Positions 11,630 to 54,643 of a stretch of DNA of 64,000 nucleotides are shown one piece after another (the stretch's first letter is position 1; the number at the start of each line of letters is the position of its first letter). This DNA is from a virus, in IMG/VR virus record IMGVR_UViG_3300045988_158927, positions 25,629 through 89,628 of that record. One strand, given 5' to 3'. The position numbers and the translations under genes are program-made. The notes beneath the pieces are model-generated. The model was not told the origin of the DNA and searched no databases. It was given only the letters and a program-made list of their open reading frames with translations.

Positions 11630-11631
11630 TC

Positions 11632-16573: not shown

Positions 16574-16575
16574 TC

Positions 16576-16827
16576 ATGGATGAATACGAAAGAATTGCAA
16601 GAAAAATCGATGCTTGGGACGAAAGCGCGGTTAAGGAAACTCTTCAGTTTGTGTATAAGACTTTGCAAAGCGTTCAAACCGAGATGCTCGATCTAGGCAA
16701 GTATAGTGATGATGTAGAAACAGCGAGCTGTCTTTCAATGATCTTGCTTGATGCTTTGGATTTTGGAAGTATCTTGGTCTCTTCCAAGCGCAAGCAACCC
16801 AAAAGCAAGAATCTCAAAACGGAGTGA
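16576..16827 (+). CDS. array-A small helical protein
   Basis: MDEYERIARKIDAWDESAVKETLQFVYKTLQSV ... ASCLSMILLDALDFGSILV. Confidence 0.55.
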   Translation: MDEYERIARKIDAWDESAVKETLQFVYKTLQSVQTEMLDLGKYSDDVETASCLSMILLDALDFGSILVSSKRKQPKSKNLKTE

Positions 16828-16830
16828 ACA

Positions 16831-26010: not shown

Positions 26011-26502
26011 ATGGGGCACCCCATGAAGAACGTTCTATTCAAGTTTGAAACGCTGTCGGAGAATGATCCGGCGGCCAAGAAAATCAAAAGCGCCTTTCTG
26101 AAGCTCGGCTGCAACGTCGTGGAAATGGCAGTGGGCAAGCCTAAGCGTAGTGCTGGCGTGAGTTACAAGGAATTCGACTTCACTTTTGCCGATTCCCAGC
26201 GCGTGACGGCCCGTATCAAGCCCACCGGAGACGTGTATCAAGTGCTGCTGAATGGCAGCGTTTTGCCGCTGAAGAATCAGGATGAGCACCAAAAGGCCAT
26301 CGAGGAAATTGCGTCGAAGCTGGACGGTGGGCGCGCTGCATTCCAGAAGAAGCTGGCACGTACCAAAGTAACTATCCCTGCTGGCATCCGTAACACGGTC
26401 AAGGAAACGGAGAAATCCCTGACCGAGAAGCGCGACGCTCTGAAAGAGGTTATTGCCGATCTCGATAAGAAGATCGAGGAAGCCACCGAGGCGCTGAAAT
26501 GA
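26011..26502 (+). CDS. hypothetical protein (coiled-coil C-terminus)
   Basis: Track ORF; an alternative start at ATG 26023 is possible. Confidence 0.55.
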   Translation: MGHPMKNVLFKFETLSENDPAAKKIKSAFLKLGCNVVEMAVGKPKRSAGVSYKEFDFTFADSQRVTARIKPTGDVYQVLLNGSVLPLKNQDEHQKAIEEIASKLDGGRAAFQKKLARTKVTIPAGIRNTVKETEKSLTEKRDALKEVIADLDKKIEEATEALK

Positions 26503-28829: not shown

Positions 28830-28851
28830 TAGGGTGATGGCCTAAAATCAG

Positions 28852-28885
28852 AACGGTCGGAAGAGATTCCGGCCGTTTTTTTTTG
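28852..28885 (+). terminator. rho-independent terminator (T9)
   Basis: AACGGTCGG (28852-28860) pairs with CCGGCCGTT (28869-28877) with one G-U pair, followed by T9. Confidence 0.7.
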
Positions 28886-28905
28886 CGCAAAAAAAGGAAC
28901 ATCCA

Positions 28906-31900: not shown

Positions 31901-34900
31901 ATGAGATGCACGTGAACAAGAATGCCGTGATTGCCATCGGTGTGCGCGGCGCCAAATTCCTGTCGCTGCCGCCTGCATCCAAGAAATCCGTGGACGTGAT
32001 GTGCAAGACTTGGCTGATCCGTCGTGACCATGGTTCCGGTGTGCTGGGCCTGACCGCTACGCCTATCACTAACTCGCCGCTGGAAATCTACGGGATGATG
32101 TCCATCGTGGAAGGCATGGACGCAGTGAATGATGCGTGCGGCGTCGCTGGACCGGGCGATTTCATCAAGGAATCTGTCATCGTCGAAAACCGTGCAGAAC
32201 TCGGCGTGGACGGCGAAGAGCGGATGATGGATGTTTTCGTCGGCTTGAAAAACACGCAGATTCTGGCGCGTCTCGTTCGTGGCGTGTGCGATATCAAGAC
32301 GGCCGCCGACGCCGGGAACATTGTCCAGCCTGACAGTGAAGAGGTGGTGCAAGGCGTGCCGCTGGATAACGACACGGACCGGCAATTGCGTCGGATGATC
32401 CTTGCCTACCAGATCATGCAGGGGGCGGTTGACGCAGGCCCGGAAATCCCCGAGCGCGTGGCAGAGGTTTATGGGTCCAAAGTCAAGACGCTGATGTCCC
32501 CGCTCAACCTTCTGTCGAATATGTCGAAACTGATGGTTGATGAGGACGCGGCCAAGAAACGCACGGTCTATATCGGTGGTTCCGAAGAGCTTACGGAGAA
32601 ATTCAACGGCCTGAAGATCAAGGAGAAACGCGCCTATGGCCCGCGCCTTGATGCAAGCGAGACGGTCAAAGTGACGGTCAATCCTGAAGACGAGGAAGAC
32701 GTTGAATTCATCGTCCAGATTGGGGCAGTCTTCGATGGTGGAAAGACGATCATCGATACAACGTCATGGGAGACTCAAGACAAATTCGAGGCACTTGCCG
32801 CGAAGCTTGACGTACCCTTGGACGTGAAGCCGTCGGAGAAATTCAAGGCCCTTATCGAGAACATGAAGGCCGAGGCTGCTAACGTGCGCGGCATCAAGAA
32901 TGGCGAGCGCATCGAGCATGCCAAGCAGATCGTCTTCTGCGACATGCTGGCAACCCATAACAAACTGAAGCGGTTCATTTGCTCACGTATGGGCATCCCC
33001 GCCTCGGAGGTCATCATCGTTACGGGTCAGCGTAACGGTTCGCCTGAAGAAATTCAGGACGTGCAAGACGGGTTCAATGACGGACGCTATCGCATCATCA
33101 TTGCCAACGAAAAGGCCGAGGTCGGCATCAACCTGCAAAAAGGCACGCAAGCTATCCATCACCTGACGATTGGATGGACTCCGGACAGTTTGCAGCAGCG
33201 TAACGGACGTGGCGTTCGGCAAGGTAACGAGACCGCGAAAGTGAACGTCTATTACTACGATGCCGAAGGTACTTTCGACCAGATGAAGCGGTCAATGGTC
33301 AACAAGAAGGCCGACTGGATCGAGAAGGTAATGACGGGCGAAGGCCGCACGGTGGCCGTGAATGCCGGCCTGACACGCGAGCAAATGGACGCGCTGATCG
33401 ATGGTATGGGCGACGCCGAGAGCATTGCCAAAGCGCAAGCCCAAGCGGAAGAGAAAGCCAAGAAGGAAGCGCGTAACCGTGCCGTCACTCAACAGATGAT
33501 CATGATTGAGGTTGCGCAAAAGAGCGAGGAAGAGCTGAAAAAGGCGGCCGATATGGCAAGCTGGGCCACGTCGATGATCAACAAGCTTATTACGCCGATC
33601 AATCAGCAACTGGAAGTCTCGCGCAAGCAATTGGCACTGTCTCGCAGTGATAAGACCAAGGAACGGCTTACGCAGACCATTGCCGAGCTTGAGAAGCGGC
33701 AGGGTGAAATCAGGACGCGCTATCGGAACTATTCTGATCCGTCCGTGCGTGAGGAATGGCAAAACGACATTGAGGCGCTGCAAGATAGCGTCAAGAGCGC
33801 CAATGAGCAGGTGGAGAACCTGTCTGGCGATGGCGGCCTGAATGAACGTGAAATCCAGCACGTCAAGGACGGAGAGTTCTTCAGGGTTGGCGATGAACTT
33901 GCTTTCCCGGGTCAGTTTGTCATGACCAAAAACGACGGTATCGGGGTTGTCGTGAAGAACATCAGGAAATCCCTTTGCCTCGCAACTCTTCGCAAGGATG
34001 ATAGCCGGCGTTCCGCTGCCTTGGATACCTCCCCGGTCGGCATGGAGCGACTGATCGATGAGGATAAGGTTCCTCACGACATTCTGAAAGAGTTTGCCAA
34101 GATCGATACGTATCAGGCGATGCAGGAAGAGGAAAGAACGTTCGAGACCGTTAAGGCGATCACGCAATACACGCAGGTTGTCGCCAAATGGAAGGGCGAC
34201 CTTGCTAACGTTCTGTGGAAAGAGGGCGTACCCGTTCTGATGATGGGTTCCTACGGTTATCCGCTGTTCGGGATTAGCCGTGATGCGCATCGGGATTCCG
34301 TCATCAATTACGATCCGTATAGCGTCGCCACGCTCAAAGATGATGGCACATGGACCGAGGTTGACATTGAAACGACGGCTGCTGCTGCCGCGCAATATCT
34401 GATCTCGATTGATGCTGTTATGAGCGATTTGATGGTGGTACGGAACGAGAAATTCCGGAAGCTTCTGTCCCAGAACATCGAGAACCATTACCTCAAAGAC
34501 CCGGCCATCGTTGAGCAGGCAATCGAACTGGCCAAGCAGGAATACTCGTCATACCGTTACGGTAGCTACGACATTCCAAAAGTGGCGCGGATGCTTTCAA
34601 TCCTTGGCCTTCGACGTGCGGCAAAACTGCACTACAACCTCTATTCGGCAGAGGATTTCCCGGGCGTGGAATCGATGCAGGGTCAGATGGAAGTGTTCGT
34701 CAAACAGGCCCGCGAAGAGGAGGAGCGCGTTAATCAGGAATGGGAGGAGAAGAAACGGCGAGAGCGCGAAGAGGCGGAAGCCAAGGCAGCACAAGATGCG
34801 GCGAACATGGAGAAATGGGTGTCCGAGGGCTTCCCGGCTGATCAGGAATTCGGCATCACTGGATTCCGCACGTTCGGCTTTAAGGATCGGATCAAGCAGG

Positions 34901-35046
34901 CTGAACAAGAGGCAGGCGGTAAAGCCCGCTGGCACGGTGACAGCAAGCAATGGATCATTCACGGGAAGGCGCTGGACAAACTGTTCAAGGATGAATCGTT
35001 TGCCGATGCCGTCAAGGAAAAAGAGCTGATCATCAAGCCCGTCTGA
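28906..35046 (+). CDS. 2046-aa polyvalent protein: N6-adenine-type DNA methyltransferase + SNF2-family helicase + long C-terminal region (DarB-like architecture)
   Basis: MTase motifs: YYTPKPIV, VLDPSSGTGIFG (motif I, nt 29347-29379) and VTNVPFG (motif IV, nt 29548-29559). SNF2 motifs: LHGYQ, DVGLGKS (31405-31425), DEMH (31900-31911), LGLTATPITNSPLEIY, GINLQ and QQRNGRGVRQGN (from nt 33193). The last ~600 aa are unassigned and include coiled coils. Confidence 0.9.
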   Translation: MTVIEKLKLIKNLKAAQALPRDTIPQRLARIKAIKAALDALKGAKAEERTAEKESVEAAFKFDAERKTAERKKANDAAYALLQSLDEGKTLTEEEKAVLAAYSGCGGGLINPLTGKTGSATEYYTPKPIVSGMWDMLGESFGFKGGKVLDPSSGTGIFGATAPKGVVMQSVEISEVSGKINKALNSKTGNNVAIEPFEGFAARTPDGTFDALVTNVPFGDSGIRTAKGMDQKYQDQSLQGYFLLRGLDKLKPGGLMAVILPGSVVANRGARETKVRTMISLKAEFCGAIRLPNSVFETTGADVITDVAVFKKHGTDAAEKIDALFRAGKSDELREMGVLYEEFIDGNWFKGEGRKYLHGEEVTVNGRWGETQKVVSTKSVTEIGPLLRELRFKSRINWDALGAADVSLAYDVGDEITAPDGTLMRWDGETFVEVQRAEAKVNPFAKVIEAMDLTALQFYYADFSDDEVAGALQYVADNNVSVKPWVNTLNLGKRIDVLVCAAVEAFDEKAPTDNLGEEHPRLTEDVQASIKAARNVTPKESAKGVYNRFKAFTDSGVLSPVWFGQVAELKTIESNAAKFEVAKGSQKWVGINEMRKAGIDVDGEEFVHNGDKVALMDEVCTGKAAEVIEALKNADVPPERKARQIALAMERIEKIDVSKMIFTLTTKYVSADAKAEFLTLYVSKSNYSGFQAHDDIVVLPASEVKYVAFGNVDKLFVRALVGYVNDGRVSFGNLKIDGVSDDEQKQAKRDLLDDYRKYLNKLDTQFNLWVHSNRALKTALDIRLNSAENAFFKTQASDGPLTIPGLSGDIQLHGYQRAFVRKIAARFNGINSFDVGLGKSFTALASVQYAQAIGAKKKTVFVVPKSVITNWVKEANRLFSADVANDILVVGAVEKKGKLDVDSKRFDADLQRIADNVHSKIFMTAEAFQRIRIREEDVKEYLDAMRLNDRDAYGDKISDADSNRVESRLYAIEKILTEDGKSEGAPFWHTLGIDSVVFDEMHVNKNAVIAIGVRGAKFLSLPPASKKSVDVMCKTWLIRRDHGSGVLGLTATPITNSPLEIYGMMSIVEGMDAVNDACGVAGPGDFIKESVIVENRAELGVDGEERMMDVFVGLKNTQILARLVRGVCDIKTAADAGNIVQPDSEEVVQGVPLDNDTDRQLRRMILAYQIMQGAVDAGPEIPERVAEVYGSKVKTLMSPLNLLSNMSKLMVDEDAAKKRTVYIGGSEELTEKFNGLKIKEKRAYGPRLDASETVKVTVNPEDEEDVEFIVQIGAVFDGGKTIIDTTSWETQDKFEALAAKLDVPLDVKPSEKFKALIENMKAEAANVRGIKNGERIEHAKQIVFCDMLATHNKLKRFICSRMGIPASEVIIVTGQRNGSPEEIQDVQDGFNDGRYRIIIANEKAEVGINLQKGTQAIHHLTIGWTPDSLQQRNGRGVRQGNETAKVNVYYYDAEGTFDQMKRSMVNKKADWIEKVMTGEGRTVAVNAGLTREQMDALIDGMGDAESIAKAQAQAEEKAKKEARNRAVTQQMIMIEVAQKSEEELKKAADMASWATSMINKLITPINQQLEVSRKQLALSRSDKTKERLTQTIAELEKRQGEIRTRYRNYSDPSVREEWQNDIEALQDSVKSANEQVENLSGDGGLNEREIQHVKDGEFFRVGDELAFPGQFVMTKNDGIGVVVKNIRKSLCLATLRKDDSRRSAALDTSPVGMERLIDEDKVPHDILKEFAKIDTYQAMQEEERTFETVKAITQYTQVVAKWKGDLANVLWKEGVPVLMMGSYGYPLFGISRDAHRDSVINYDPYSVATLKDDGTWTEVDIETTAAAAAQYLISIDAVMSDLMVVRNEKFRKLLSQNIENHYLKDPAIVEQAIELAKQEYSSYRYGSYDIPKVARMLSILGLRRAAKLHYNLYSAEDFPGVESMQGQMEVFVKQAREEEERVNQEWEEKKRREREEAEAKAAQDAANMEKWVSEGFPADQEFGITGFRTFGFKDRIKQAEQEAGGKARWHGDSKQWIIHGKALDKLFKDESFADAVKEKELIIKPV

Positions 35047-36383: not shown

Positions 36384-37196
36384 ATGGCAATTACTGTCTC
36401 TCACTCGGCCGTCAAAGAAAAGCGCGACGTGCCGAAACGCGAACGCCTCGGCAGCCAATGGGACGGCCTGAATACAAACCTGCTGGCGACGTTCTTTGAA
36501 GTCGAGAAGGTGGGCAGCGAGTACAAGCGCAAAGAGGGCCTGTATGTAGTTGCGCCGCTCACGGATGCGAGCTGCGAACTCACCCAAAACTGGACATCGC
36601 CCTTTGAGCAATCCGGCGTAGACCAAAGCGCCCCCTACCTGACCGCCATGCTTCAGACTGGCGGGCTTTCGCAAGTGGTGGACGCGGTGGGATCGGCCCT
36701 TGGATTCGAGGGAGACGGCGGGATGGCGAACGAGGCGCTCAAGCAGGCGCAAGGCCGGTCAAGCGTGACGAAGCTTAACAGCACGCAAATTTTCAGCGGG
36801 ATGCCACCGGTCAAATTCAGCGTAACGGCCCTTTTCCGGGCGTGGTCGAATGCCCGGGATGAGGTCGAGCGCCCCATGGAAAAACTCGTGGAATGGTCCC
36901 TGCCGAAGGCCATCGTCAACGAAGGAACCCTGATCGAACGGGGGGTTCAAATCCAGAAAGGCAGCGCCGATTGGTGGTCGGCCATCATGCCCAGCAAGGC
37001 CCCTTGTCTGGTAGGAATGACGTACAAGGGGCGCACTTGGATGCCCATGGTCATCGAATCAATCAGCATCCCGATTGCGTCCAACGTGACGGGTTCCGGG
37101 GAGTTTGTAGAGCTGGCAATCCCGATGACGCTGGCCACGCTGACGGCTATTGACGCGAAAGACTGGACGGCTACGAGCGTCAATCATGGCCGATAG
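36384..37196 (+). CDS. hypothetical late protein, terminator-insulated monocistron (tail-tube-like guess)
   Basis: Track ORF 36297-37196 trimmed to ATG 36384 with RBS GAGGAAG. It is flanked by strong terminators on both sides, like the capsid and sheath genes. Its beta-rich pattern is weakly reminiscent of tube proteins, so the function is uncertain. Confidence 0.55.
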   Translation: MAITVSHSAVKEKRDVPKRERLGSQWDGLNTNLLATFFEVEKVGSEYKRKEGLYVVAPLTDASCELTQNWTSPFEQSGVDQSAPYLTAMLQTGGLSQVVDAVGSALGFEGDGGMANEALKQAQGRSSVTKLNSTQIFSGMPPVKFSVTALFRAWSNARDEVERPMEKLVEWSLPKAIVNEGTLIERGVQIQKGSADWWSAIMPSKAPCLVGMTYKGRTWMPMVIESISIPIASNVTGSGEFVELAIPMTLATLTAIDAKDWTATSVNHGR

Positions 37197-37219
37197 ACTG
37201 CACAAAACATAGGCAATTC

Positions 37220-37244
37220 AGCCCGCCGAGTGCGGGCTTTTTTG
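37220..37244 (+). terminator. rho-independent terminator
   Basis: AGCCCGC (37220-37226) pairs with GCGGGCT (37232-37238), followed by TTTTTG. Confidence 0.75.
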
Positions 37245-37318
37245 TGCCCGTCGCCGGCATCATCCGCAACGATTGGCGACGATTGGCTATGAGTGGGCAA
37301 TCACGATAAGCAATGTTA

Positions 37319-37340
37319 GAAAATTGGCGGTAATTTTTCC
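37319..37340 (+). repeat. 21-mer repeat copy 1 (GAAAATTGGCGGTAATTTTTCC)
   Basis: Read directly from the sequence. The core AATTGGCGGTAA is shared by all five copies. Confidence 0.9.
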
Positions 37341-37360
37341 TACCCCCCTCCCCCGGGGTG
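37333..37360 (+). repeat. left inverted arm with C6TC5G4 tract
   Basis: AATTTTTCCTACCCCCCTCCCCCGGGGTG. Its reverse complement reappears, split in two, at 37914-37935 and 37955-37973. Confidence 0.8.
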
Positions 37361-37376
37361 CATTTAACAGGTGTAA

Positions 37377-37397
37377 CAATTGGCGGTAAATTTTCAG
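37377..37397 (+). repeat. 21-mer repeat copy 2 (CAATTGGCGGTAAATTTTCAG)
   Basis: Read directly from the sequence. Confidence 0.9.
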
Positions 37398-37401
37398 TCG
37401 T

Positions 37402-37443
37402 GAGTTCAACATGAGTTCAACGTATACTCAATATGAGTTCAAC
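37402..37443 (+). repeat. three direct GAGTTCAAC repeats
   Basis: Copies at 37402-37410, 37413-37421 and 37435-37443, with a degenerate fourth copy (GTTAGTTCATC) at 37444-37454. Confidence 0.85.
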
Positions 37444-37480
37444 GTTAGTTCATCGTTGCGTAACATGTCCAAAAGAACAA

Positions 37481-37501
37481 GAAAATTGGCGGTAAATTTC
37501 C
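37481..37501 (+). repeat. 21-mer repeat copy 3 (GAAAATTGGCGGTAAATTTCC)
   Basis: Read directly from the sequence. Confidence 0.9.
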
Positions 37502-37559
37502 GCTCAACGTGGTAAATGAGAACGATTCTCGTGTGTCTCACAAGATTTAAATAATTCTT

Positions 37560-37581
37560 GAAAAATTACCGCCAATTTTTC
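37560..37581 (-). repeat. 21-mer repeat copy 4, inverted (GAAAAATTACCGCCAATTTTTC on + strand)
   Basis: Shares 22 identical nt (TGAAAAATTACCGCCAATTTTT) with copy 5. Confidence 0.9.
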
Positions 37582-37649
37582 TCTCATGTTTGGGAACGTT
37601 CGTTATACGATTAAGCCGAAAAACGGGGGTTTTTCTCATCTTTCGCAAC

Positions 37650-37658
37650 GTTGAACTC
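37650..37658 (-). repeat. inverted copy of GAGTTCAAC (GTTGAACTC)
   Basis: Read directly. It sits 7 nt upstream of inverted 21-mer copy 5, mirroring the left side of the island. Confidence 0.7.
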
Positions 37659-37664
37659 TTTCCT

Positions 37665-37685
37665 GAAAAATTACCGCCAATTTTT
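37665..37685 (-). repeat. 21-mer repeat copy 5, inverted
   Basis: GAAAAATTACCGCCAATTTTT on the + strand. Confidence 0.9.
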
Positions 37686-37860
37686 ACATATGTTAAATCG
37701 AATTGTTAAACGAGTGTTTATGCGGTTCTTCAGGCGTCGGACACAAAATTTAACGTTGTTAAAAAGTATTTTCCGAATTTCTATTTTTTTCTGTCGTGAG
37801 GGTCAGATATGAAAAAAGGTTTTTTTGAATAGACCCCTATATATATAAGGGGGAGAAATT
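37680..37860. other. strongly AT-rich block with CCCCT(AT)4AAGGGG palindrome (37834-37852)
   Basis: Contains runs such as TTTTTACATATGTTAAATCGAATTGTTAAA and CTATTTTTTTCTG. No ORF. It contrasts with the GC-rich flanks. Confidence 0.7.
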
Positions 37861-37913
37861 AGGGAAATTGCCCCGAGCCCCCCCCCGGAAGCGCGCACGG
37901 ATGGGGCGTCTCT

Positions 37914-37973
37914 CACCCCGGGGGGAGGGGGGGGGAATATTGCCGGCGAATTACGGAGGGGGTAGGAAAAATT
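37914..37973 (-). repeat. right inverted arm (C4G6AG9 tract ... GGAGGGGGTAGGAAAAATT)
   Basis: Reverse complement of 37333-37360, interrupted by AATATTGCCGGCGAATTAC and with G-run length differences. Confidence 0.75.
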
Positions 37974-38021
37974 CGGGGAAATTAGAGCAGGAATTTCCGG
38001 GCCGTGCGATGGCCTCGGGGA

Positions 38022-38074
38022 GGTCTGCCAGAGGAACGGGCGATGGGGCGGAAGCCCCTACTCTGGAAGAGACC
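38022..38074 (+). other. three-tier hairpin with GGAA tetraloop in GC-rich leader
   Basis: GGTCT pairs with AGACC (38022-26 with 38070-74), CCAGAG with CTCTGG (38028-33 with 38061-66), and GGGGC-GGAA-GCCCC forms the tip (38045-38058). Confidence 0.4.
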
Positions 38075-38150
38075 GCCGACGCATCGATGCCGGACCTGCT
38101 GGCGCGTGTCTGTCCACGTCATCCGTCTGTAGCTTGTGAGGCACGTTGGG

Positions 38151-38179
38151 TTGACGGCAGGCCGGGTACTAGAGAGAAT
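38151..38179 (+). promoter_or_regulatory. sigma70-like promoter (TTGACG-17 nt-GAGAAT)
   Basis: -35 at 38151-38156 and -10 at 38174-38179, about 35 nt upstream of ATG 38215. Confidence 0.5.
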
Positions 38180-38214
38180 GCAGCCATCCCACACACAAGC
38201 CGATGAGGCCAACC

Positions 38215-38658
38215 ATGAACAAGCCGTCCCTTTCCTACCTGCCCGCCTGTATGTCTTTCCGGACCCTTCGCGCCAAGAGCGACGCCTACCTGATCGGATT
38301 CCTTGGGGGCTTCGATGACGTGGACGCCATCCGTGCGGCGCTGGCGAAGTTTCGCGGCGCTTCCTATGTCCATCAGAACGACCTTCTGAGCGTGGCCGTT
38401 AGCGGGGCATCTACATTTGTGCGTCATAGCCGGCCGGACGATGCCAAGCGCTTGAATGCCCTTGCTGCCCGTCGGCGGGCCATTGTGGTCGAGATGATCG
38501 GGCAATACGTTGAGTGCTGGTGCCATCAAGTAGGCCCGGCTTACGTCACGAAAGAGGCGCGGGACTATCTGATCGGTTGCGCTGATGGTGGATGGTCGCT
38601 GCAACCCGTCCCAGTAGCCGTCCGTCTCTTCCCCGCATCGCCTGCCGATTTTGCTTGA
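38215..38658 (+). CDS. array-B protein (~150-aa paralog family), first member
   Basis: ATG 38215 lies 6 nt after GAGG. AYLIGFLGGFDDVDAIRAALAKF aligns with AFFAGYSGYQFDPWEMNALRAALQEE of 39423. C-terminal motif YLIGCADGGW. Confidence 0.55.
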   Translation: MNKPSLSYLPACMSFRTLRAKSDAYLIGFLGGFDDVDAIRAALAKFRGASYVHQNDLLSVAVSGASTFVRHSRPDDAKRLNALAARRRAIVVEMIGQYVECWCHQVGPAYVTKEARDYLIGCADGGWSLQPVPVAVRLFPASPADFA

Positions 38659-38683
38659 CACGCGGAACGGCAAGCTCCATACT
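38655..38683 (+). promoter_or_regulatory. sigma70-like promoter (GCTTGACACGC ... CATACT)
   Basis: -35 TTGACA at 38655-38660, a 17-nt spacer, and -10 CATACT at 38678-38683. Confidence 0.55.
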
Positions 38684-38716
38684 TCCAAACATCCCACTCA
38701 CCACAAAGAGAACATC

Positions 38717-39049
38717 ATGCGCTTCATTCTCACTTGGACCAAGAACAACCGGATGCGTTACGTCGTGGCGCATCGCATGGACGTTAAAGCGGATGTCGAG
38801 CTGATCCGCAAGATCGAAGAAGAGGAGCCGGATATCTGGCCGCTGCGCACGGCATCCGTTCATGAGGTCATCGAGAAGCTTATGCCCGAGCGCGCCAACT
38901 GGCTTTTGCGTGACCTTGACATGGTGTGCGAAGAAGGCGAGATGAACGGCCTGTCCCAAGAGCTGCGCACGCTGATTACCGGCCTGTCGGATATCGATAA
39001 CAAGGAATCGATGAAGAAGGTTTCCGCATATCTCGCCTCGATCCAATGA
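38717..39049 (+). CDS. hypothetical protein
   Basis: Track ORF 38651-39049 trimmed to ATG 38717 (MRFILTW), downstream of the promoter. Confidence 0.55.
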   Translation: MRFILTWTKNNRMRYVVAHRMDVKADVELIRKIEEEEPDIWPLRTASVHEVIEKLMPERANWLLRDLDMVCEEGEMNGLSQELRTLITGLSDIDNKESMKKVSAYLASIQ

Positions 39050-39423
39050 CGCCGATAACCATGGCCATCGTTAGGAACGCACACCCCGCGTTCCTTTACG
39101 CCTACGCCAGCCCACAAAATCCGGCCCATGGCTTCGTTGATTCGCCTAGCCTAGGCGATGACACTACAGTGACGCCGAAGGCCGTAGCGGGCTTTCTGGG
39201 GGCTTCTACGGCCGACACGCAAATTCAGGAACTCGACGGATGCACGCTTGATGCCATCGCCGCATCACTCGCTGCCGAGTATCGCAAGGAATACGGAAAA
39301 CTTTCATCAGCCGTCGCGGAATCGATCTATCAGGCATTCCGAGGGATTGTCTGGGGCGGCTGGCCCATTCTCAATGCACGGCACGTCATCGCTGCTGCCG
39401 TGCGCTTTGCAAAGGAGCAATAA
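39046..39423 (+). CDS. array-B protein (divergent member)
   Basis: VAGFLGASTADTQIQEL and the C-terminal GIVWGGWPILNARHVIAAAVRFA fit the family motifs. ATGA overlap. Confidence 0.55.
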   Translation: MTPITMAIVRNAHPAFLYAYASPQNPAHGFVDSPSLGDDTTVTPKAVAGFLGASTADTQIQELDGCTLDAIAASLAAEYRKEYGKLSSAVAESIYQAFRGIVWGGWPILNARHVIAAAVRFAKEQ

Positions 39424-39884
39424 TGACACCGAAACCGCTGATTCCGATGGGAATCGAAGCTTTCAAACTCGAAGAATCTGCCAATGACGATCACTATGCG
39501 GCTTTCTTTGCCGGGTATTCAGGCTATCAGTTTGATCCGTGGGAAATGAATGCGTTGAGGGCAGCACTTCAGGAAGAAGGCCGTGATGAATACCCCGGCC
39601 CTAACAGCATCTATAACCGATTCTTAAAGGGCGCATGGAAGCAGTCCTACAAGCATCAGGATTTCCACTGGGACGAAGAATGCGAAGAGAATCTAGTGAT
39701 GCTGGACCTTCTGGAGGTGGCCGCCGATAAGCTGGATCGAGACAAGGTAAGCGAAGAAAAGCGCAAGCTGATGGAAGCCTATCTGTCCGGATGGGCATGC
39801 GCTGGCAATTTCCTCGAATCCCCCATCTTCGCCTACTTCAAAGCCGAAGAGTACGTTAAGTCTGTTTTTGGTATCGAGAAATGA
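39423..39884 (+). CDS. array-B protein
   Basis: FFAGYSGYQFDPWEMNALRAAL ... EAYLSGWACAGNFLESPIFAYFKAEEYV. Confidence 0.6.
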   Translation: MTPKPLIPMGIEAFKLEESANDDHYAAFFAGYSGYQFDPWEMNALRAALQEEGRDEYPGPNSIYNRFLKGAWKQSYKHQDFHWDEECEENLVMLDLLEVAADKLDRDKVSEEKRKLMEAYLSGWACAGNFLESPIFAYFKAEEYVKSVFGIEK

Positions 39885-40411
39885 TCAAACACTCACGCTC
39901 AATCACGGCCGGCTACATTGTCCGTGCCTACAAATCGAACGGTCTTGGCACGCATCATGATTGTGTACACACGCTGTCCGGTTACTCTGGCCGTGTCATT
40001 CGGCCGGAACAATTGCGAGAGCTTGCAATCCGTGCTGCCATGCTGCCGGGAAATCGCCTGCTGACGCCCGACGATATCTTGCTGATGATGAAGGCCATTG
40101 ACGTGGGGTTGCTGGATGGCTGGCAGCATAGCATTCTGAAAAAGCCGAATCAGTCCAGATTTGCACGCGCTGGACGTGATGATGCGCATATCCTGCTGGT
40201 GCAATCGCTGTACGATATCGCGCACGAAAGAGCGGCCGAGATATGGGGGCGGTTTAAAAAGCACACCAAATACGCTTTCCCGGTCGGCGCGTGGCTTTCC
40301 GGCTGGCGTATGCGCGGCGATGATTCACTGAGCCCGGCCATCGCGGCCGTGGATGCCATCACGTATGCACGCGGCTTCATTGACTATCTGAATCTGAAGG
40401 TGAAGGAATGA
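39881..40411 (+). CDS. array-B protein
   Basis: HTLSGYSGRVIRPEQLRELA ... GAWLSGWRMRGDDSLSPAIAAVDAITYARGFIDYL. Confidence 0.6.
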   Translation: MIKHSRSITAGYIVRAYKSNGLGTHHDCVHTLSGYSGRVIRPEQLRELAIRAAMLPGNRLLTPDDILLMMKAIDVGLLDGWQHSILKKPNQSRFARAGRDDAHILLVQSLYDIAHERAAEIWGRFKKHTKYAFPVGAWLSGWRMRGDDSLSPAIAAVDAITYARGFIDYLNLKVKE

Positions 40412-40908
40412 CGGAAAAATGCTTGTCGCTGATTACTGTCGGCGCATTCCGAAAGATCGCAAGGTCGGGAAACATTGAAAGGATCGAGGAGCTTTCCCGC
40501 CAATTGACCGGGTTCATCCACACTTACCCCATCCATATCACGCCGCGACAAATCATCTGGATGGATGAGAAAATGAAGGTATGGCCCAGCAACAAGCGGT
40601 TATCTATCGATGACGTGATTCAGTTCATCGAAGGGGCGCGGCTCTATACGCCTAAGAATGTCTTTTACCGTTCCGGGTGTGAGGAATCCTATGCAATCCG
40701 GATGATGTCGAATCTCTACGATGCGGCGAGAGACTACGTGTACTAGAAATGCAAGGATACTGAATTGACAACCTATGCGCTGGACTATCTGTACGGATGG
40801 GAATGGTCCGGGCAGATTGACCGGACGCCTATGGCCATGGCAAAGGATGCTATCGGCTATGCAAAGTGGGTCAGAAAGCAAATGAAAGAAAGAGGGTTCT
40901 GCCGATGA
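40408..40908 (+). pseudogene. array-B paralog interrupted by an in-frame TAG (40744-40746)
   Basis: Track ORF 40408-40746 ends ...NLYDAARDYVY-TAG. The same frame continues KCKDTELTTYALDYLYGWEWSGQIDRTPMAMAKDAIGYAKWVRKQM to TGA 40906-40908. This continuation aligns with the C-terminal motif of 39881-40411. Confidence 0.5.
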
Positions 40909-41369
40909 AGTGCAAGTATTACGCCATTTCTGGCAAGGAAATTCTGAAGAAAATCGAGTATTGGCATGGCGTGGCGTACCTTAGCGGGTATTCTGGGGGA
41001 ACGATATCCCCATGGAAGCATGCCGAATATTTGCGCAAGAATCTCGCAGACTTCGCGCCAACCAAGAAATTTTCCCCGCGCTATGTCCATCTTCTCGCCG
41101 GCGACTTCATGCTGCTGGAAAGGCTGAAACGTTGCGAATCGATCCGCAACGGCCGCGACAAGATGCACGTCAAAACCGTAGATTCGATGCGCTGGCTCTA
41201 TGAATCGTTCGTGAACGAGGAATACGCACGCAGCCCGTACCATCGCGAGGCGCTGGAATACGTGCGCGGAATGGCTGATGCCGGCATCGTCATGGACCCG
41301 TTCCTCGTGATGGAGAAGGTGGGCGGCTATCTGGCAGAGATTAAGACTTTCAAGCAAGGGCCGAAATGA
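40905..41369 (+). CDS. array-B protein
   Basis: Track ORF 40866-41369 trimmed to ATG 40905. AYLSGYSGGTISPWKHAEYLRK ... ALEYVRGMADAGIVMDP. Confidence 0.6.
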   Translation: MKCKYYAISGKEILKKIEYWHGVAYLSGYSGGTISPWKHAEYLRKNLADFAPTKKFSPRYVHLLAGDFMLLERLKRCESIRNGRDKMHVKTVDSMRWLYESFVNEEYARSPYHREALEYVRGMADAGIVMDPFLVMEKVGGYLAEIKTFKQGPK

Positions 41370-41818
41370 TCATCTTCCACACCCCAGTCAAAAGCATGCC
41401 GATTCCCGGGGTATCGCTGAGAATGCTAGACCTTTCGTTCCTGTCTGGATATCTCGGTTTCGACGTGACAGACAAGCAGGAAAAGGCTTTGGCCAAGGGG
41501 CTTGGCTATCGTCGATGGGTTGATGCGCTCGATCTTGCTAACGCTCTTGGCGAGGGTATCAGCTACATCGACGAAACGAACATCAAGCCATTTAGCGTCG
41601 ATGAACGGTACAAAAAGCAAGAGCTGATCCTATCGGCGCTCTATGAGATTGTGGATAAAACCAAGCAGGATCACACAGTATCGGTGGTTCAGGAAATGCT
41701 TGCCGAAAGATGGATCGAAGGCGCGGTAATGGGGGCGTCTCTGATCGTGGACTTCACGCCAGAGGAACTGGCAAATGAGGCCGTCAAGCATGCACGTCGC
41801 AGGCGCCCCGAGAAGTAG
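41366..41818 (+). CDS. array-B protein
   Basis: SFLSGYLGFDVTDKQEKALAK ... RWIEGAVMGASLIVDFTPEELANEAV. Confidence 0.6.
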   Translation: MIIFHTPVKSMPIPGVSLRMLDLSFLSGYLGFDVTDKQEKALAKGLGYRRWVDALDLANALGEGISYIDETNIKPFSVDERYKKQELILSALYEIVDKTKQDHTVSVVQEMLAERWIEGAVMGASLIVDFTPEELANEAVKHARRRRPEK

Positions 41819-41834
41819 CGCGCAAGCAACACGC

Positions 41835-41863
41835 TTGACACGCAGTGAGGACGGACCTATACT
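41835..41863 (+). promoter_or_regulatory. sigma70-like promoter (GCTTGACACGC ... TATACT)
   Basis: -35 TTGACA at 41835-41840, a 17-nt spacer, and -10 TATACT at 41858-41863. Confidence 0.65.
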
Positions 41864-41872
41864 GTCCTCACT
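41844..41872 (+). promoter_or_regulatory. 9-bp inverted repeat embracing the -10 element (operator candidate)
   Basis: AGTGAGGAC (41844-41852) and GTCCTCACT (41864-41872). The 11-nt spacer contains TATACT. Confidence 0.5.
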
Positions 41873-41890
41873 TTCCAACGAGGCATCACT

Positions 41891-42331
41891 ATGCGTCCCA
41901 CTGTCCAAAAACCCTTGTATACGAACGCTTCCCTTCTCTACGTGATGAGCCGTGCCGAACTGGCCGGCTACGCCACGCAATCCATGACGCCGGCTCAATA
42001 TGATGCGGCACGCCAAAAACTCGCGTCCATGCCCGCCATGCAAATGGTTTCGCCCGACGCAGCGTGTGCGCTTGTTCTTGGCGGCAATCCGTTCGCTGGA
42101 TGGTTCGCTGCCGACGACCGTGAAGACGCGGTTGTGATGCGTCGGCGCGATCTCTACAAAGAGATCATCATGACTGAATCGAAGTGGCTGCGAGAGCGTG
42201 CAGATAGCGTCTATCTGGAAACGTTCGATGACGTGACGAACGGATACGTTCAAGGCTATATGCCGACATTGGACCCGCTGCGAGCGGTGGCGCTGATTGA
42301 CCAAATCACACGCGACATTCTTTCCAACTAA
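41891..42331 (+). CDS. array-B protein (divergent member)
   Basis: AELAGYATQSMTPAQYDAARQKL ... NGYVQGYMPTLDPLRAVALIDQI. Confidence 0.6.
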   Translation: MRPTVQKPLYTNASLLYVMSRAELAGYATQSMTPAQYDAARQKLASMPAMQMVSPDAACALVLGGNPFAGWFAADDREDAVVMRRRDLYKEIIMTESKWLRERADSVYLETFDDVTNGYVQGYMPTLDPLRAVALIDQITRDILSN

Positions 42332-42342
42332 TGAGGTGAAAC

Positions 42343-43065
42343 GTGGGTTTTGATACTGAAATTATCAAATCGATCAAGTTTGATGATCCTTCAATGGAAC
42401 TTGATTATGACGATTACGATATCTTGCTGCGGCAACTGGAAGAACTCTTCTCGACCGGAAAAGGCGAGTACCCCATTCCGGGCGTGAAAATCAAATGGAA
42501 GAAGTACGCAATTCCTGTGCCTGTCATGCTTGGCATGGTTAATGTTGAGCTTGCGAGAGAGTTTAGCGTTGTCGTGCTAGGCAAGGATTCCTATCTGCAA
42601 GATGGTCGGAAACTCGCAGATTCTAATGATCACAAAAGTAAGGTATATCGGAAGATCACGGATAACTACGGGTTGTTCATCAATGTTGCTGCCACTGAAC
42701 ATTGCGTCTTTGACGGCATCAATCAAATCCTGCTGATGGACCCGGCTGGCACTAACACTGCCTCGATTCCTAAAGAGCTGATCCATTTCCCACAAAATGA
42801 CCCGGTGTACATTGCCCGCGAGCTGGAATCACTGTCGTTTGGCAAGCATCTTGTGGCGTGCATTCCGGACCTGAACGATTTGCAGGTCAGCTACCTGTCT
42901 TCGGCATTCGAGGCGACGCATTCGGTGGGGCGCGTCATTCACAAGAAGATGGACATTAATCTGACCGTTTTCATATCGCAAAAACTGGAATGGAATACAG
43001 AAGTGGCTGTCTTTCGCTCCATCCAAAGCATTGTCGGTGTTCCTGCTACGAGAGGTCCGAATTGA
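42343..43065 (+). CDS. hypothetical protein
   Basis: Track ORF with a GTG start. The region is AT-richer than its surroundings. Confidence 0.55.
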   Translation: MGFDTEIIKSIKFDDPSMELDYDDYDILLRQLEELFSTGKGEYPIPGVKIKWKKYAIPVPVMLGMVNVELAREFSVVVLGKDSYLQDGRKLADSNDHKSKVYRKITDNYGLFINVAATEHCVFDGINQILLMDPAGTNTASIPKELIHFPQNDPVYIARELESLSFGKHLVACIPDLNDLQVSYLSSAFEATHSVGRVIHKKMDINLTVFISQKLEWNTEVAVFRSIQSIVGVPATRGPN

Positions 43066-43094
43066 ACTATCGGTTCAAGAAATGGCAAAAGAAG

Positions 43095-43373
43095 ATGATT
43101 TGCAGTCTCTACGGAGATCGAATCATCTTCGATCAGAACGACGAGATGCGCGATATCAAGGGCCGGTCCATCGAGTACCCGGACGCCTGCGAGCAATTCG
43201 GCATCTTTGAGGTTCGGACGACAGAACAAATGGGCGACCTTAAGCTAGTCGATAAGGTCATTTTCAAGTGCATGGACTATTGCGACGCTATGTCGTTCGC
43301 AAAAGCAGCGAGAGGCAAGCGAGAACTTGCCGTGATGAATCACTATTCTGGCGAGATCGTGGAGTACGTATGA
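43095..43373 (+). CDS. hypothetical protein
   Basis: Track ORF 42990-43373 trimmed to ATG 43095. A TTG at 43062 overlapping the upstream stop is an alternative start. Confidence 0.45.
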   Translation: MICSLYGDRIIFDQNDEMRDIKGRSIEYPDACEQFGIFEVRTTEQMGDLKLVDKVIFKCMDYCDAMSFAKAARGKRELAVMNHYSGEIVEYV

Positions 43374-44137
43374 ACCTGACCGAACTGAAACTGAATCGCA
43401 ACGAGTTTGACGTTTACGTGCGGGCCGACATTGTTCAGGCCATCGCAGACGGCAAGTATATTGCTGACCCGTCAAACGAGCATAAGGAATGGATCGATAG
43501 CATGAAGGGACTGCCGTTCATTCATGTCATGGAATCGATGGCCGATCTTGTCGAGGATCATATGCGCGAAACCTACGGTACGCCGCCTTTCATGGCATCG
43601 GTGGACTATAACGAGGACTTAGCGGCGATTTTTGACGATTACGAGAAGGCAATCCGTGCGCTGAAACGCTTCGATATGCCGATCGTGTACAAAGGGCATA
43701 TACCGAAAGATGCAAAGAGCGATAGTCTTTGCATCGGTGTCGTTAATGGCTTGCCACGTTGGTTCCTGTATCATGGCAAAATCCATTCCAAGAAGCTTGC
43801 TATTGCCTGCCAATACGTATGGCCTGATGCTTCTGATAAAAGCTTTTTGGATTTCCTTATCGTCACTGAAGGTGGCAACTGGCGTGATTTGAACGATATC
43901 GTCAATGGCGGCATGCTTGGCGTTGTTCTCAAAAACACCAAGAAAAACCTAACTGCCGCTGCAATGGCCGGACTGCGATATGAGACCGTCAAGTCTGCTA
44001 GAGATGGGGCCAGTTATATCATCGTCACGGCCGTTCCTCGGCATCACGACTATGACATGATCCTTGACCGTGCAATGAGCATTGTTGGCGGTCTGTATAT
44101 CCCTTGTGAATCCAACGAAGATGAGGACGAAGAATGA
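43370..44137 (+). CDS. hypothetical protein
   Basis: Track ORF 43268-44137 trimmed to ATG 43370, with an ATGA overlap. Confidence 0.6.
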   Translation: MNLTELKLNRNEFDVYVRADIVQAIADGKYIADPSNEHKEWIDSMKGLPFIHVMESMADLVEDHMRETYGTPPFMASVDYNEDLAAIFDDYEKAIRALKRFDMPIVYKGHIPKDAKSDSLCIGVVNGLPRWFLYHGKIHSKKLAIACQYVWPDASDKSFLDFLIVTEGGNWRDLNDIVNGGMLGVVLKNTKKNLTAAAMAGLRYETVKSARDGASYIIVTAVPRHHDYDMILDRAMSIVGGLYIPCESNEDEDEE

Positions 44138-44634
44138 AATTCATCCACCTGAAAGACCTGATTGACACCGAAAACGACAATTTCTTTTTGGTCGAGCACA
44201 CTATCGACAAACTCGACGGGTACATTCCGTACACCATCGGTACGGACCTCATGAAACAAATGATCCTTTACCGTCGTCTCGACTATCGAATGAACCCGGC
44301 GGAACTGACCATGTGCATCATGGCCGCAAAGGATGCCGGGATGAGGCGTTTTGATTGGGACAGCATCATGCAGAACTATGACGGATATCAGGCATTCCGC
44401 AACTATTCATCCGTCAGTTACGCGATTGACGGTATCCGTCGGCAGGAATGCGTTGTGGCCGTTTACCGTGGCGAAATGCGCGATTGGCAGCTAGAGGAAG
44501 TCCGCAAGAAAGAAGGAGAAATTCGGATGCTCTGTTTGCAGAATCAATACGATGAATTCATTACCCTTTTTGGGTATCAGCCGCTTTTCCTAGAGGCAAT
44601 TCAGAAATTCGACCACGATCAATCTTTCCTGTGA
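44134..44634 (+). CDS. hypothetical protein
   Basis: Track ORF with an ATGA overlap. Confidence 0.6.
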   Translation: MKFIHLKDLIDTENDNFFLVEHTIDKLDGYIPYTIGTDLMKQMILYRRLDYRMNPAELTMCIMAAKDAGMRRFDWDSIMQNYDGYQAFRNYSSVSYAIDGIRRQECVVAVYRGEMRDWQLEEVRKKEGEIRMLCLQNQYDEFITLFGYQPLFLEAIQKFDHDQSFL

Positions 44635-44641
44635 GGCAATC

Positions 44642-45451
44642 ATGATCAAATTCGACGGATACACTGCAAACGGCATCAAGAGCGTTAGCATCGATGATGG
44701 ACTGATCTTGCGTGCCATCCTTGGGGTTGCGAAACAAGAGGAATCGCCTTATATCGGTCAATACGCGCTTGATGAACTGAAGGGGGGCTCTGTATCCAGC
44801 GCCGTCGAAACTCTGGCGCAATGGTATGCAGAGGAGGTGATGGATTGTGATGCCCCGTATGTCGCCAAAAAGGACGGCCAGACGATCTTTGAGGCCGAGG
44901 CCGATAAGGACTATATCCCGCACGTCATGACCTTTGATGAGCTGAACCATTTCAAGCCGCATCATGACCGCATATTAGTTTTTACCCAAAAGAGTAATGA
45001 TGAAGATATGCGGGGGACAATGGAGTATGGTTATCAGCGTATCTACTATGACGATGAGTATGCAGATTCCGTCTATGCGTACATTCGATATCCATACTTT
45101 GGGCGCGCTCTCGCAGAGTGCATGGAGAGCGCCTACTGTCGGAGCAGAATAAAACGGCTTGAGCTTCCGGAATCTCACCCGGTCGAATTGAGCGATTGGC
45201 AGGTGTTTGAAGAGCTGAAGACTGGCAACCGCATCGCCGCGATGGTCAAGCCTGGGGACGTGAACTCCGCGTTCCTGAACGTGACGGAACTGCCTTATAT
45301 GCGCGGCAAGCATCCCGAACATGGGCATGTTCTGATCGTCGGGGCGGCGCGTTCTGGATCAATGGCTGCAATCGTGACGTATGCGCGGGCTTGCGGTGTT
45401 GAGCTTGAAAAGCCCAAAGAGCCGGAAGTTTTTGATGAGATTCCTTTCTGA
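44642..45451 (+). CDS. hypothetical protein
   Basis: Track ORF. Confidence 0.6.
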   Translation: MIKFDGYTANGIKSVSIDDGLILRAILGVAKQEESPYIGQYALDELKGGSVSSAVETLAQWYAEEVMDCDAPYVAKKDGQTIFEAEADKDYIPHVMTFDELNHFKPHHDRILVFTQKSNDEDMRGTMEYGYQRIYYDDEYADSVYAYIRYPYFGRALAECMESAYCRSRIKRLELPESHPVELSDWQVFEELKTGNRIAAMVKPGDVNSAFLNVTELPYMRGKHPEHGHVLIVGAARSGSMAAIVTYARACGVELEKPKEPEVFDEIPF

Positions 45452-45465
45452 AAGGTGGGTGAAAA

Positions 45466-45903
45466 ATGCTACTGCGAGAATTGCCCAATTGGGTTGCAAA
45501 GAACAAGGACCGGATCAATGAAACGGCCATCGACGGATGGAAAGTGTGCAACGATACGAAATGGATGCAAGCTACTCACGTTCTGGAGAACGTCAAAAAA
45601 CTGTCAGAAGAACTACGGCATGAAGTAACGGCTATCAACATTCCTTTCTTCGATATGTCGGAACTTGAGTTTAGTGAATGGAATGCCATTTATGAACTCG
45701 GTGCTGCAATGAGATTGCGTGACGATGACACAGGGCAATTTTTTCATGCACTGATGTATCTTGATGATGCTTCCCCGGCGCTGCAATTGCTGAAAGAATT
45801 AGAGATGTGGGAGATTGACAAAGCTTTTGCCCATGCGACGGATTACATCAAGCAATCGAAAGCAGAAGTCTATGAATTGAAAAGAATCGTAGACCTCGTT
45901 TAA
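45466..45903 (+). CDS. hypothetical protein
   Basis: Track ORF, followed by a terminator. Confidence 0.6.
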   Translation: MLLRELPNWVAKNKDRINETAIDGWKVCNDTKWMQATHVLENVKKLSEELRHEVTAINIPFFDMSELEFSEWNAIYELGAAMRLRDDDTGQFFHALMYLDDASPALQLLKELEMWEIDKAFAHATDYIKQSKAEVYELKRIVDLV

Positions 45904-45914
45904 GGTTTACAATC

Positions 45915-45943
45915 AAGGCCCACTAACGGGCCTTTTCTTTTTC
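45915..45943 (+). terminator. rho-independent terminator
   Basis: AAGGCCC (45915-45921) pairs with GGGCCTT (45928-45934), followed by TTCTTTTTC. Confidence 0.65.
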
Positions 45944-54621: not shown

Positions 54622-54643
54622 AATCGGTCCAATCGATCGATAT

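Follow-up and report, generated by a model that had tools for sequence, protein, structure and literature searches.

A hypervariable tandem family of predicted helical-bundle proteins in the accessory region of a P1-like phage, tentatively read as a repertoire of binders of host or rival-element proteins

The Ip1, Ip2, and Ip3 proteins of phage T4 each inhibit a different variant of GmrSD, without cross-protection (PMC12373910). Under toxIN pressure, T4 responds with tandem amplification of the counter-defense gene tifA (PMC9391042), and there is precedent for finding anti-defense genes from their regulatory sequences (PMC11065993). Here, we describe a locus to be set beside these systems: an array of small, strongly diverged genes, A to I, at positions 38215 to 42331 on the plus strand of a 64,000-nucleotide stretch of viral DNA (IMG/VR record IMGVR_UViG_3300045988_158927, positions 25,629 to 89,628; hereafter, the window). 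As judged by profile searches and structure prediction, the array is a new protein family with a new predicted fold in a familiar kind of locus, i.e., a hypervariable accessory operon.

The array opens with member A (147 amino acids [aa]; basic; 38215 to 38658), followed by gene B (110 aa; 38717 to 39049), gene C (125 aa; 39046 to 39423), and members D (153 aa; acidic, net charge of -12; 39423 to 39884), E (176 aa; basic; 39881 to 40411), F (166 codons with an in-frame TAG; 40408 to 40908), G (154 aa; basic; 40905 to 41369), H (150 aa; 41366 to 41818), and I (146 aa; acidic; 41891 to 42331), all on the plus strand. Genes C/D, D/E, E/F, F/G, and G/H are joined by 4-nucleotide ATGA overlaps, the array genes carry Shine-Dalgarno-like sequences, and the isoelectric points (pI) of the members span 4.7 to 9.7. 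The start of A is 38215; an upstream ATG at 38203 is lost through a 1-nucleotide deletion in most relatives, and the pI of 9.2 for this protein was computed on the 151-aa open reading frame (ORF) that begins there. Member F is interrupted by a single TAG at 40744 to 40746, which is TGG in all eight relatives aligned at this position; the F orthologs with TGG encode an intact protein of 165 to 166 aa. TAG recoding was ruled out: besides the TGG of the relatives, TAG is the stop codon of terL, u122, pmgG, and H, and since it ends these four other genes of the window, its occurrence in F reads as a nonsense allele (TGG to TAG) that leaves a truncated protein or a pseudogene.

An earlier note on this DNA had proposed eight or more consecutive paralogs of about 150 aa with two colinear motifs and otherwise highly diverged sequences. 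Because BLASTP links among the window proteins alone were weak (best E value of 0.006 in a 15-sequence database), orthologs were collected, one profile was built per gene, and all pairs were compared with hhalign. The adjacent E and F were the closest pair (E value of 9.4e-7 over 144 columns), ahead of D-H (1.6e-5, 115 columns), G-H (7.5e-5), E-G (5e-4), D-E (1e-3, 131 columns), D-G (1e-3, 104 columns), and A-G (0.005, 102 columns); the best pair among the control genes J to N reached 0.02. Intact F orthologs also matched E by BLASTP at 1e-8 over 162 to 164 residues, and an A ortholog matched G at 6e-5. When aligned by hhalign to a merged D-H profile, I scored 9.8e-5 over 99 columns in register and A scored 1.2e-3 over 97 columns in register that cover both motifs; C scored 0.011 over 39 columns, with the C-terminal motif and the last helix in register, and B scored 0.44, the controls being at 0.018 or worse. 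A core hidden Markov model (HMM) recovered I at an E value of 0.0096 in the window and its orthologs at 9e-6 to 6e-4, together with the A orthologs (8e-4 to 0.06). In a single-sequence ranking, I, A, and C took ranks 1 to 3 among 97 other plus-strand ORFs of the window. The score of C against a seven-member HMM (7.4 bits) was reached by 2 of 3,000 shuffles (P of about 0.001), that of B by 1,008 of 3,000, and the N-terminal motif of C is weak (VAGFLGAS).

These comparisons point to full-length, colinear homology that includes both motif turns, with strong support among D to H and weak support for C. On sequence grounds, A, D, E, F, G, H, and I are firm members, seven in all, C is probably a shortened or degenerate member, and B lies outside the family. 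The ORFs, their positions, the start of A, the interruption at 40408, the two motifs, and the strong divergence between paralogs (measured here as 14 to 25% identity) were all as the earlier note had described them, and its own proposed check, an HMM-HMM alignment, returned significant similarity (9.4e-7 to 1e-3 among pairs drawn from D to H). The count of eight or more narrows to seven firm members plus the 125-aa C, and the ORFs are not strictly consecutive, as the conserved 110-aa nonmember B sits between A and C.

In the family alignment, the first motif reads (A/F)-Y-L-S-G-Y-S-G followed by x-x-x-P, and the second reads A-x-W-L-x-G-W-x-x-x-G...s-P. Between them lie a central glycine, an F-x-x-x-x-R element, and a helix of the S-L-Y-E-I type. 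Membership is marked by the turn (aromatic)-L-x-G-[YF] near the N terminus and the turn (aromatic)-[LVI]-x-G-[WYM]...G...P toward the C terminus; MAFFT alignments of the array ORFs show both, in colinear order. Only M1 and three glycines are nearly invariant, and the first 20 or so columns show no conservation past M1. The motifs are alike, and an internal duplication was considered and set aside; their similarity is not significant (E value of 0.18 over 10 columns). AlphaFold2 models of E (predicted local distance difference test [pLDDT] score of 77.6; predicted template modeling [pTM] score of 0.76; nine helices) and H (pLDDT of 87.9; pTM of 0.84; eight helices) are all-alpha and share the same helix order. 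In both, each motif comprises the C-terminal end of a helix, a glycine turn, and a next helix that starts near the conserved proline. The models thus portray the array proteins as small soluble bundles of eight to nine helices, in which the two motifs would be fold-defining glycine turns at helix ends. Since only the glycines, besides M1, are nearly invariant, an enzyme is unlikely, and the proteins are probably nonenzymatic.

Neither fold nor sequence led to a described family, in line with the earlier claim that no characterized family bears this signature. Foldseek gave no matches at E values of ≤0.001 for the E model (39881 to 40411) against PDB and BFVD or for the H model against PDB; nothing fell below an E value of 0.5, and the best TM-scores were about 0.2 to 0.3. 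A Bcl-2-like helical bundle recurred among the rows and was rejected (E values of 0.9 to 9, probability of at most 0.14, TM-scores of 0.17 to 0.25). Pfam and PHROGs scans of the 27 alignment members gave no family with an E value below 0.01 and none recurring across paralogs, so that no match to a known housekeeping phage domain emerged from these or the PDB searches; known anti-restriction and anti-defense families in the same two collections (e.g., Ocr, ArdA, ArdB/KlcA, and Acr families) gave no significant profile match. PADLOC, run with PADLOC-DB, returned one isolated match (E value of 0.0064) in 1 of the 27 members and none that recurred. Across the three libraries, with single members scanned as well, all that came up was scattered matches with E values above 0.006. 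The best E value of the family profile against PDB sequences was 0.84, and tblastn searches gave no match for E among phages or for D among plasmids. A HMMER search with the 27-sequence profile against 1.84 billion protein cluster representatives yielded 11 proteins at E values of ≤0.001. Nine of them (144 to 176 aa) are orthologs or allelic variants of A, D, E, F, G, H, and I; one, P0048, is a 51-aa deletion allele of D that forms its own cluster in the protein database; and the last, P0047, the sole nonorthologous match, is a compositional artifact (a repetitive coiled-coil protein of 1,801 aa matched in 10 stretches). The nine genuine clusters are all orthologs within one clade: true matches are confined to the same rare metagenomic phage clade, with none in other P1-like phages, and no relative was found in the phage, plasmid, and isolate-genome collections.

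The history of the array was read from a comparison of the window with 11 related loci. The order of the array is conserved and its content near complete in all 11, and the individual genes change fast. Flanking structural genes are 93 to 100% identical to those of the window, with nonsynonymous divergence (dN) of 0.004 to 0.02, synonymous divergence (dS) of 0.19 to 0.53, and a ratio (omega) of 0.01 to 0.05; the array genes are 37 to 100% identical, with dN of 0.06 to 0.34, dS of 0.26 to 1.75, and omega of 0.14 to 0.29, the lower bound being that of C. Divergence at the amino acid level (dN) is thus 3 to 60 times that of the flanking structural genes, in agreement with the rapid divergence first claimed for the array, and the omega values mark its members as protein-coding and constrained. 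Two genes stand out as conserved amid the variable ones, namely, B (91 to 99% identity, omega of 0.06; no Pfam/PHROG match and no helix-turn-helix [HTH] detected) and the downstream K (103 aa), the pair having omega values of 0.06 to 0.08. The dS of F, G, and H (0.75 to 1.75) exceeds that of the flanks, that of D (0.62) only marginally so; these raised values suggest old alleles brought in via recombination.

Allele shuffling is visible gene by gene. H is the most variable member (37 to 93% identity between genomes, dS of 1.75), G falls into three allele classes in the relatives (58 to 88% identity), and the allele classes of D, G, and H are combined differently in different genomes. Locus L002 is 100% and 99% identical to the window in A and I, and 58% and 54% in D and H; L009 carries the D class of L002 with a window-like H (93%); and L012 combines a window-like G (88%) with an H of 37% identity and the absence of D. 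Sliding windows place most of the within-gene change between the two motifs: residues 51 to 100 of E (ratio of nonsynonymous to synonymous differences [pN/pS] up to 0.58), 41 to 80 of G (up to 0.69), 81 to 120 of H (about 0.6), and 81 to 120 of I (0.56 to 0.89, with a peak of 0.83 to 0.89 around residues 91 to 120). D departs in having a variable N-terminal two-thirds and almost invariant last 30 residues. Natural knockouts complete the picture: the amber codon of F in the window, a split A and a D cut to 51 aa in L003, and the lack of D in L012. The L003 allele (8361 to 8516; the P0048 protein) is an in-frame deletion that leaves the residues just past motif 1 (GYSGYMF) fused to the tail (KAEEYVKSVFGIEK) that follows motif 2. 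On this genomic record, the members are individually dispensable and shuffled among cocirculating phages.

Variability extends beyond the family. Genes J, K, L, M, and N and a gene for a 145-aa protein follow on the plus strand (42343 to 45903); none belongs to the family, and all six lack known domains. Hypervariability on a par with that of the array marks J, L, N, and the 145-aa gene (55 to 94% identical to the window; minimum of 52 to 64% between any two genomes). Locus L009 has no J, L004 and L008 have a truncated L, and L005, L007, and L010 have no 145-aa gene.

A plus-strand terminator-like hairpin at 37220 to 37238, 3' of the pmgG-like gene (7-bp stem with six GC pairs, then TTTTTTGT), closes the upstream unit, so the array would need its own promoters. 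Three promoter-like sites were considered, all on the plus strand. P_A (38151 to 38179; TTGACG, 17 nucleotides, GAGAAT; 9 of 12 consensus positions) lies 36 nucleotides 5' of the start of A, and its -35 and -10 hexamers are each kept in 10 of 11 relatives, with a diverged spacer in L003 and L012. P_B (38655 to 38683; GCTTGACACGC ... CATACT; 10/12) lies in the gap between A and B and is conserved in 11 relatives. P_I (41835 to 41863; TTGACA, 17 nucleotides, TATACT; 11/12) occupies the only sizeable gap of the array and is conserved in 11 relatives, its upstream flank not. P_B and P_I share the 11-mer GCTTGACACGC plus C/T-ATACT, and no other exact copy of GCTTGACACGC besides these two (the second at 41833) exists in the window. 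The hexamers are conserved while spacers and flanks vary; the three sites are therefore credible, if predicted, sigma70 promoters of the host RNA polymerase. A perfect 9-bp inverted repeat at 41844 to 41872 (AGTGAGGAC, 11 nucleotides, GTCCTCACT; plus strand) straddles the -10 hexamer of P_I; found nowhere else in the window, it is conserved, with a paired change in both arms in L004 (A-T to G-C), and is a candidate operator for a dimeric repressor. The first plus-strand terminator-like hairpin downstream of the array is at 45915 to 45934. Given this hairpin and the one at 37220, an apparent unit begins with A and closes with the 145-aa gene; its genes span about 7.7 kb and lack known domains. 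The hairpin at 45915 to 45934 ends 10 nucleotides before the ATG of a tail-module gene at 45945; this gene lacks a visible Shine-Dalgarno sequence, and the gap leaves no space for a promoter.

All large ORFs of the window are on the plus strand. PHROG and Pfam scans identified dUTPase, thymidylate synthase, and a RecT-like protein; small and large terminase subunits (23685 to 25990); a 163-aa DarA_N-domain protein (26011 to 26502); a 776-aa protein with InPase and DarA_N domains (26499 to 28829); a 2,046-aa DarB homolog with methylase and helicase parts (28906 to 35046; PHROG 11801, E value of 0; DarB-like PHROG 10089); a PmgG-like head-morphogenesis protein (36384 to 37196); and, past 45.9 kb, baseplate and tail genes with the sheath at 53008, a portal at 54642, and a tape measure. 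Megablast of 37000 to 43000 against 50,697 phage records found no match. DarB matches P1, P7, and Xanthomonas phage Rb1 in short pieces only (73 to 76%), and the sheath is 55% identical to that of Rb1, the nearest isolate, 56% to that of an Ideonella plasmid, and 40% to that of the 88-kb plasmid of Burkholderia vietnamiensis G4. From gene content and the DarB and sheath matches, the source is a distant P1-like, Dar-encoding myovirus of roughly 89 kb, nearest to proteobacterial phage-plasmids; it is probably itself a phage-plasmid of a proteobacterial host. Synteny with Rb1 was examined and rejected: this phage lacks a counterpart of the array, and the gene preceding the gap there does not resemble PmgG. 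The clade is seen solely as metagenomic contigs of about 88 to 91 kb or halves of about 45 kb, and a metagenome scan anchored on gene B gave six loci, mostly contigs already collected. Rfam and tRNA scans of the window found nothing.

We tentatively favor, at somewhat less than even probability, the reading that the array is a lineage-restricted repertoire of binders of variable host proteins, presumably defense proteins, or of proteins of rival elements, carried in an accessory operon. This reading builds on the paralogy, coding constraint, predicted fold without relatives, promoter conservation, hypervariability, allele shuffling, and dispensability reported above, to which it adds binding, timing of expression, and the identity of the targets. 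The family would have grown by serial tandem duplication inside the operon. Host sigma70 RNA polymerase would transcribe A from P_A, B to H from P_B, and I plus the downstream genes from P_I, running to the first terminator at 45915, and the ATGA overlaps would couple translation from C to H. The products would keep a conserved glycine-turn scaffold and change fast in the central segment between the motifs. As no polar residue is conserved, they would most likely act as stoichiometric binders rather than enzymes. Each paralog and allele would match its own version of a partner that itself varies, the likeliest partners being host anti-phage defense proteins or proteins of competing mobile elements, and alleles would be swapped between cocirculating phages. 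The Ip1 to Ip3 set and the tifA amplification of T4 are precedents that support such a mechanism. A narrower version is more doubtful, namely, that the phage carries specific inhibitors built on an unseen helical fold, a single scaffold having been duplicated seven or eight times and diversified on its central surface, with each copy disabling a different host immune protein or variant. Pointers to anti-defense are indirect: a Dar-like module 3 to 12 kb upstream, dispensable members, and a hypervariable region.

Several observations weigh against this reading. The Dar module (26.0 to 35.0 kb) offers weak guilt by association, and two terminators and head-morphogenesis-like genes separate it from the array. 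A generic promoter scan of the region found 7 sites, with 8.2 expected in shuffles; thus, the sigma70-like promoters of the earlier note stand as phylogenetically conserved hexamers and not as an enriched class of sites, and strong promoters of this type would fit lysogenic or constitutive expression as well as the early lytic expression that it proposed. The comparison set is a small sample, 11 loci from one clade. No sliding window exceeds an omega of 1 (maximum of 0.89, in I), and relaxed constraint plus recombination, without an arms race, could be the source of the variability. Finally, no relative emerged from two scans covering 185,579 species-representative genomes, none of which carries the clade.

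Among the alternatives, the one that survives best, although we deem it unlikely, is that the array is lysogenic-conversion cargo made in the plasmid-prophage state from constitutive host-type promoters to protect the lysogen, its products either countering, in the manner of immunity proteins or antitoxins, the polymorphic toxins that competitors deploy or serving as superinfection-exclusion or anti-phage factors directed at other phages. Near-consensus sigma70 promoters require no phage factor, and hypervariability, allele shuffling, and dispensability fit this alternative equally well. The relatives of the source phage, among them the 88-kb plasmid of B. vietnamiensis G4 and the Ideonella plasmid, are phage-plasmids. 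The immunity-gene arrays of polymorphic-toxin systems typically consist of tandem, diverged, small, cytoplasmic, nonenzymatic proteins, which the array resembles. However, no member matches a PADLOC defense model or a Pfam immunity family, and the array has no toxin gene next to it. At P_I, the inverted repeat spanning the -10 hexamer suggests a repressed rather than a constitutive promoter, and the genes lie between head and tail modules, co-oriented with lytic genes.

The position just 3' of the pmgG-like gene and of the Dar-like module, with its DarB and two DarA_N proteins, raises another alternative, which we regard as improbable: that the array products travel inside the head and enter the cell together with the DNA, as the Ips of T-even phages or the Dar proteins of P1 do, the motifs serving packaging or contact with a shared part of the head. 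The Ip loci of T-even phages, too, encode variable assortments of small proteins with one short conserved signal (PMC12373910). Unconserved first columns of the array alignment leave no shared N-terminal targeting peptide, though, and both conserved motifs lie inside the sequence, where they are predicted to form buried turns. P1 late promoters are without a good -35 hexamer, which the promoters of the array possess, and strong terminators at 36289 and 37220 stand between the array and the head genes.

Still less probable is a housekeeping role, in which the phage itself would need the proteins as regulators, as accessory factors in replication or recombination, or as assembly chaperones. Such a role would account for an array kept in order and near complete in all 11 relatives with omega below 0.3 for every member, and the nonsignificant top Foldseek rows include a transcriptional regulator of phage 186. 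It is at odds with the natural nonsense, deletion, and loss alleles, with amino acid divergence 3 to 60 times that of structural genes of the same genomes, with the lack of any HTH or other DNA-binding domain match, with mixed charge (pI of 4.7 to 9.7), and with the absence of the family from other P1-like phages in the HMMER search. The last alternative, that of chance motifs or noncoding ORFs, has the weak pairwise BLAST among window members in its favor and is refuted, its probability being negligible, by significant, full-length profile comparisons, by the three weakest members ranking 1 to 3 of the 97 ORFs, by omega far below 1, by confident AlphaFold models, and by orthologs kept in all relatives.

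The segment between the pmgG-like gene and the array (37300 to 37700) is a repeat island with two repeat sets. The 16-mer AATTGGCGGTAAATTT is present in five copies (forward at 37322, 37378, and 37484; reverse at 37562 and 37667), with 0.03 expected by chance, and tandem 11-bp units (TGAGTTCAACG/AT) occupy 37401 to 37456. Inverted arms of 49 nucleotides (37362 to 37410 and 37650 to 37698) each hold a promoter-like site with a -10 hexamer that overlaps the 16-mer; the two would face each other. We take the 16-mer to resemble the asymmetric C1 operator of P1 (ATTG...TAAATTT), which is a lead only. Inverted repeats rich in G/C homopolymers lie within 37320 to 37360, 37834 to 37851, and 37870 to 37975 (e.g., 37343 to 37358 versus 37917 to 37932), and the palindrome CCCCTATATATATAAGGGG is also found in this G/C-rich zone upstream of the array. 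A defined genome end or telomere 5' of the array was considered and rejected; the contig ends of six relatives (L004, L005, and L007 to L010; many about 45-kb half genomes) are scattered over 37516 to 37916, and this scatter reads as an assembly-fragile zone rather than a terminus.

Small duplicated genes also occur elsewhere in the window. The plus-strand pairs 1523-2164/2205-2882, 3725-4033/4037-4285, and 15153-15431/16289-16570, the last with weaker paralogous ORFs nearby (16519 to 16824 and 16828 to 17442), match by BLASTP at 1e-5 to 1e-8 (window-only database), and none is related to the array family; therefore, tandem duplication of small genes seems a general habit of this genome. A small ORF at 11593 to 12033 is 31% identical over 85 residues to about residues 1670 to 1751 of DarB (E value of 2e-4, window-only database; residues 1690 to 1771 of the stop-to-stop ORF 28846 to 35043 that contains the DarB homolog) and may be a duplicated DarB fragment.

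Phage accessory regions are the main source of new counter-defense proteins, and most candidates are single ORFans without internal evidence. The array instead offers eight related sequences and natural alleles that separate the scaffold, with its two glycine turns, from the fast central segment, in a cleanly bounded, promoter-tagged locus that could be synthesized and screened. If the array does encode specific inhibitors, it would show a temperate phage-plasmid building a diversified inhibitor repertoire by duplication and recombination and would provide several new anti-defense proteins and a new binder fold at once. If not, it would be ordinary phage dark matter in a rare uncultured phage clade.

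Among known systems, the Dar system of P1 (DarA, DarB, Hdf, DdrA, DdrB, and Ulx) belongs to the same type of phage, and a DarB homolog and two DarA_N proteins lie upstream of the array. However, array members match no Dar component or P1 protein; no Pfam/PHROG match was obtained for them with the same tools that find DarA_N and DarB in the neighboring genes, and the array is set apart from the Dar genes by two terminators and by sigma70-type promoters of its own. Immunity arrays of polymorphic-toxin systems share with it tandem, diverged, small, cytoplasmic, nonenzymatic paralogs and differ from it in the adjacent toxin gene, the Pfam immunity match, and the location, which is here a lytic-module region. 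Acr and other anti-defense operons resemble it in placing variable small ORFans behind a recurrent strong promoter motif (GCTTGACACGC...YATACT, here in two copies) and in keeping conserved genes among the variable ones (here, B and K); in contrast to Acr/Aca operons, the array members and their neighbors yielded no match to known Acr or Aca proteins, nor was an HTH detected in B. Gene accordions such as that of tifA likewise duplicate a small accessory gene in tandem, and such duplication under pressure from host defense has been observed to lead toward arrays of this sort (PMC9391042), but their copies are recent and nearly identical, whereas those of the array are ancient (14 to 25% identity) and fixed in order across the clade. 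T-even Ip loci (Ip1 to Ip3 of T4 and at least 10 Ips in relatives) are, like the array, small, nonessential, very diverse genes with a short shared element. In the Ips, which are packaged, that element is a capsid-targeting sequence of some 10 residues at the N terminus, where the prohead protease cleaves, whereas the N termini of the array are unconserved and its motifs internal; no similarity in sequence or fold was found between the two, and array members are homologous over their full length. Yet the Ip example shows why a phage would keep several diverged copies of one small gene (PMC12373910).

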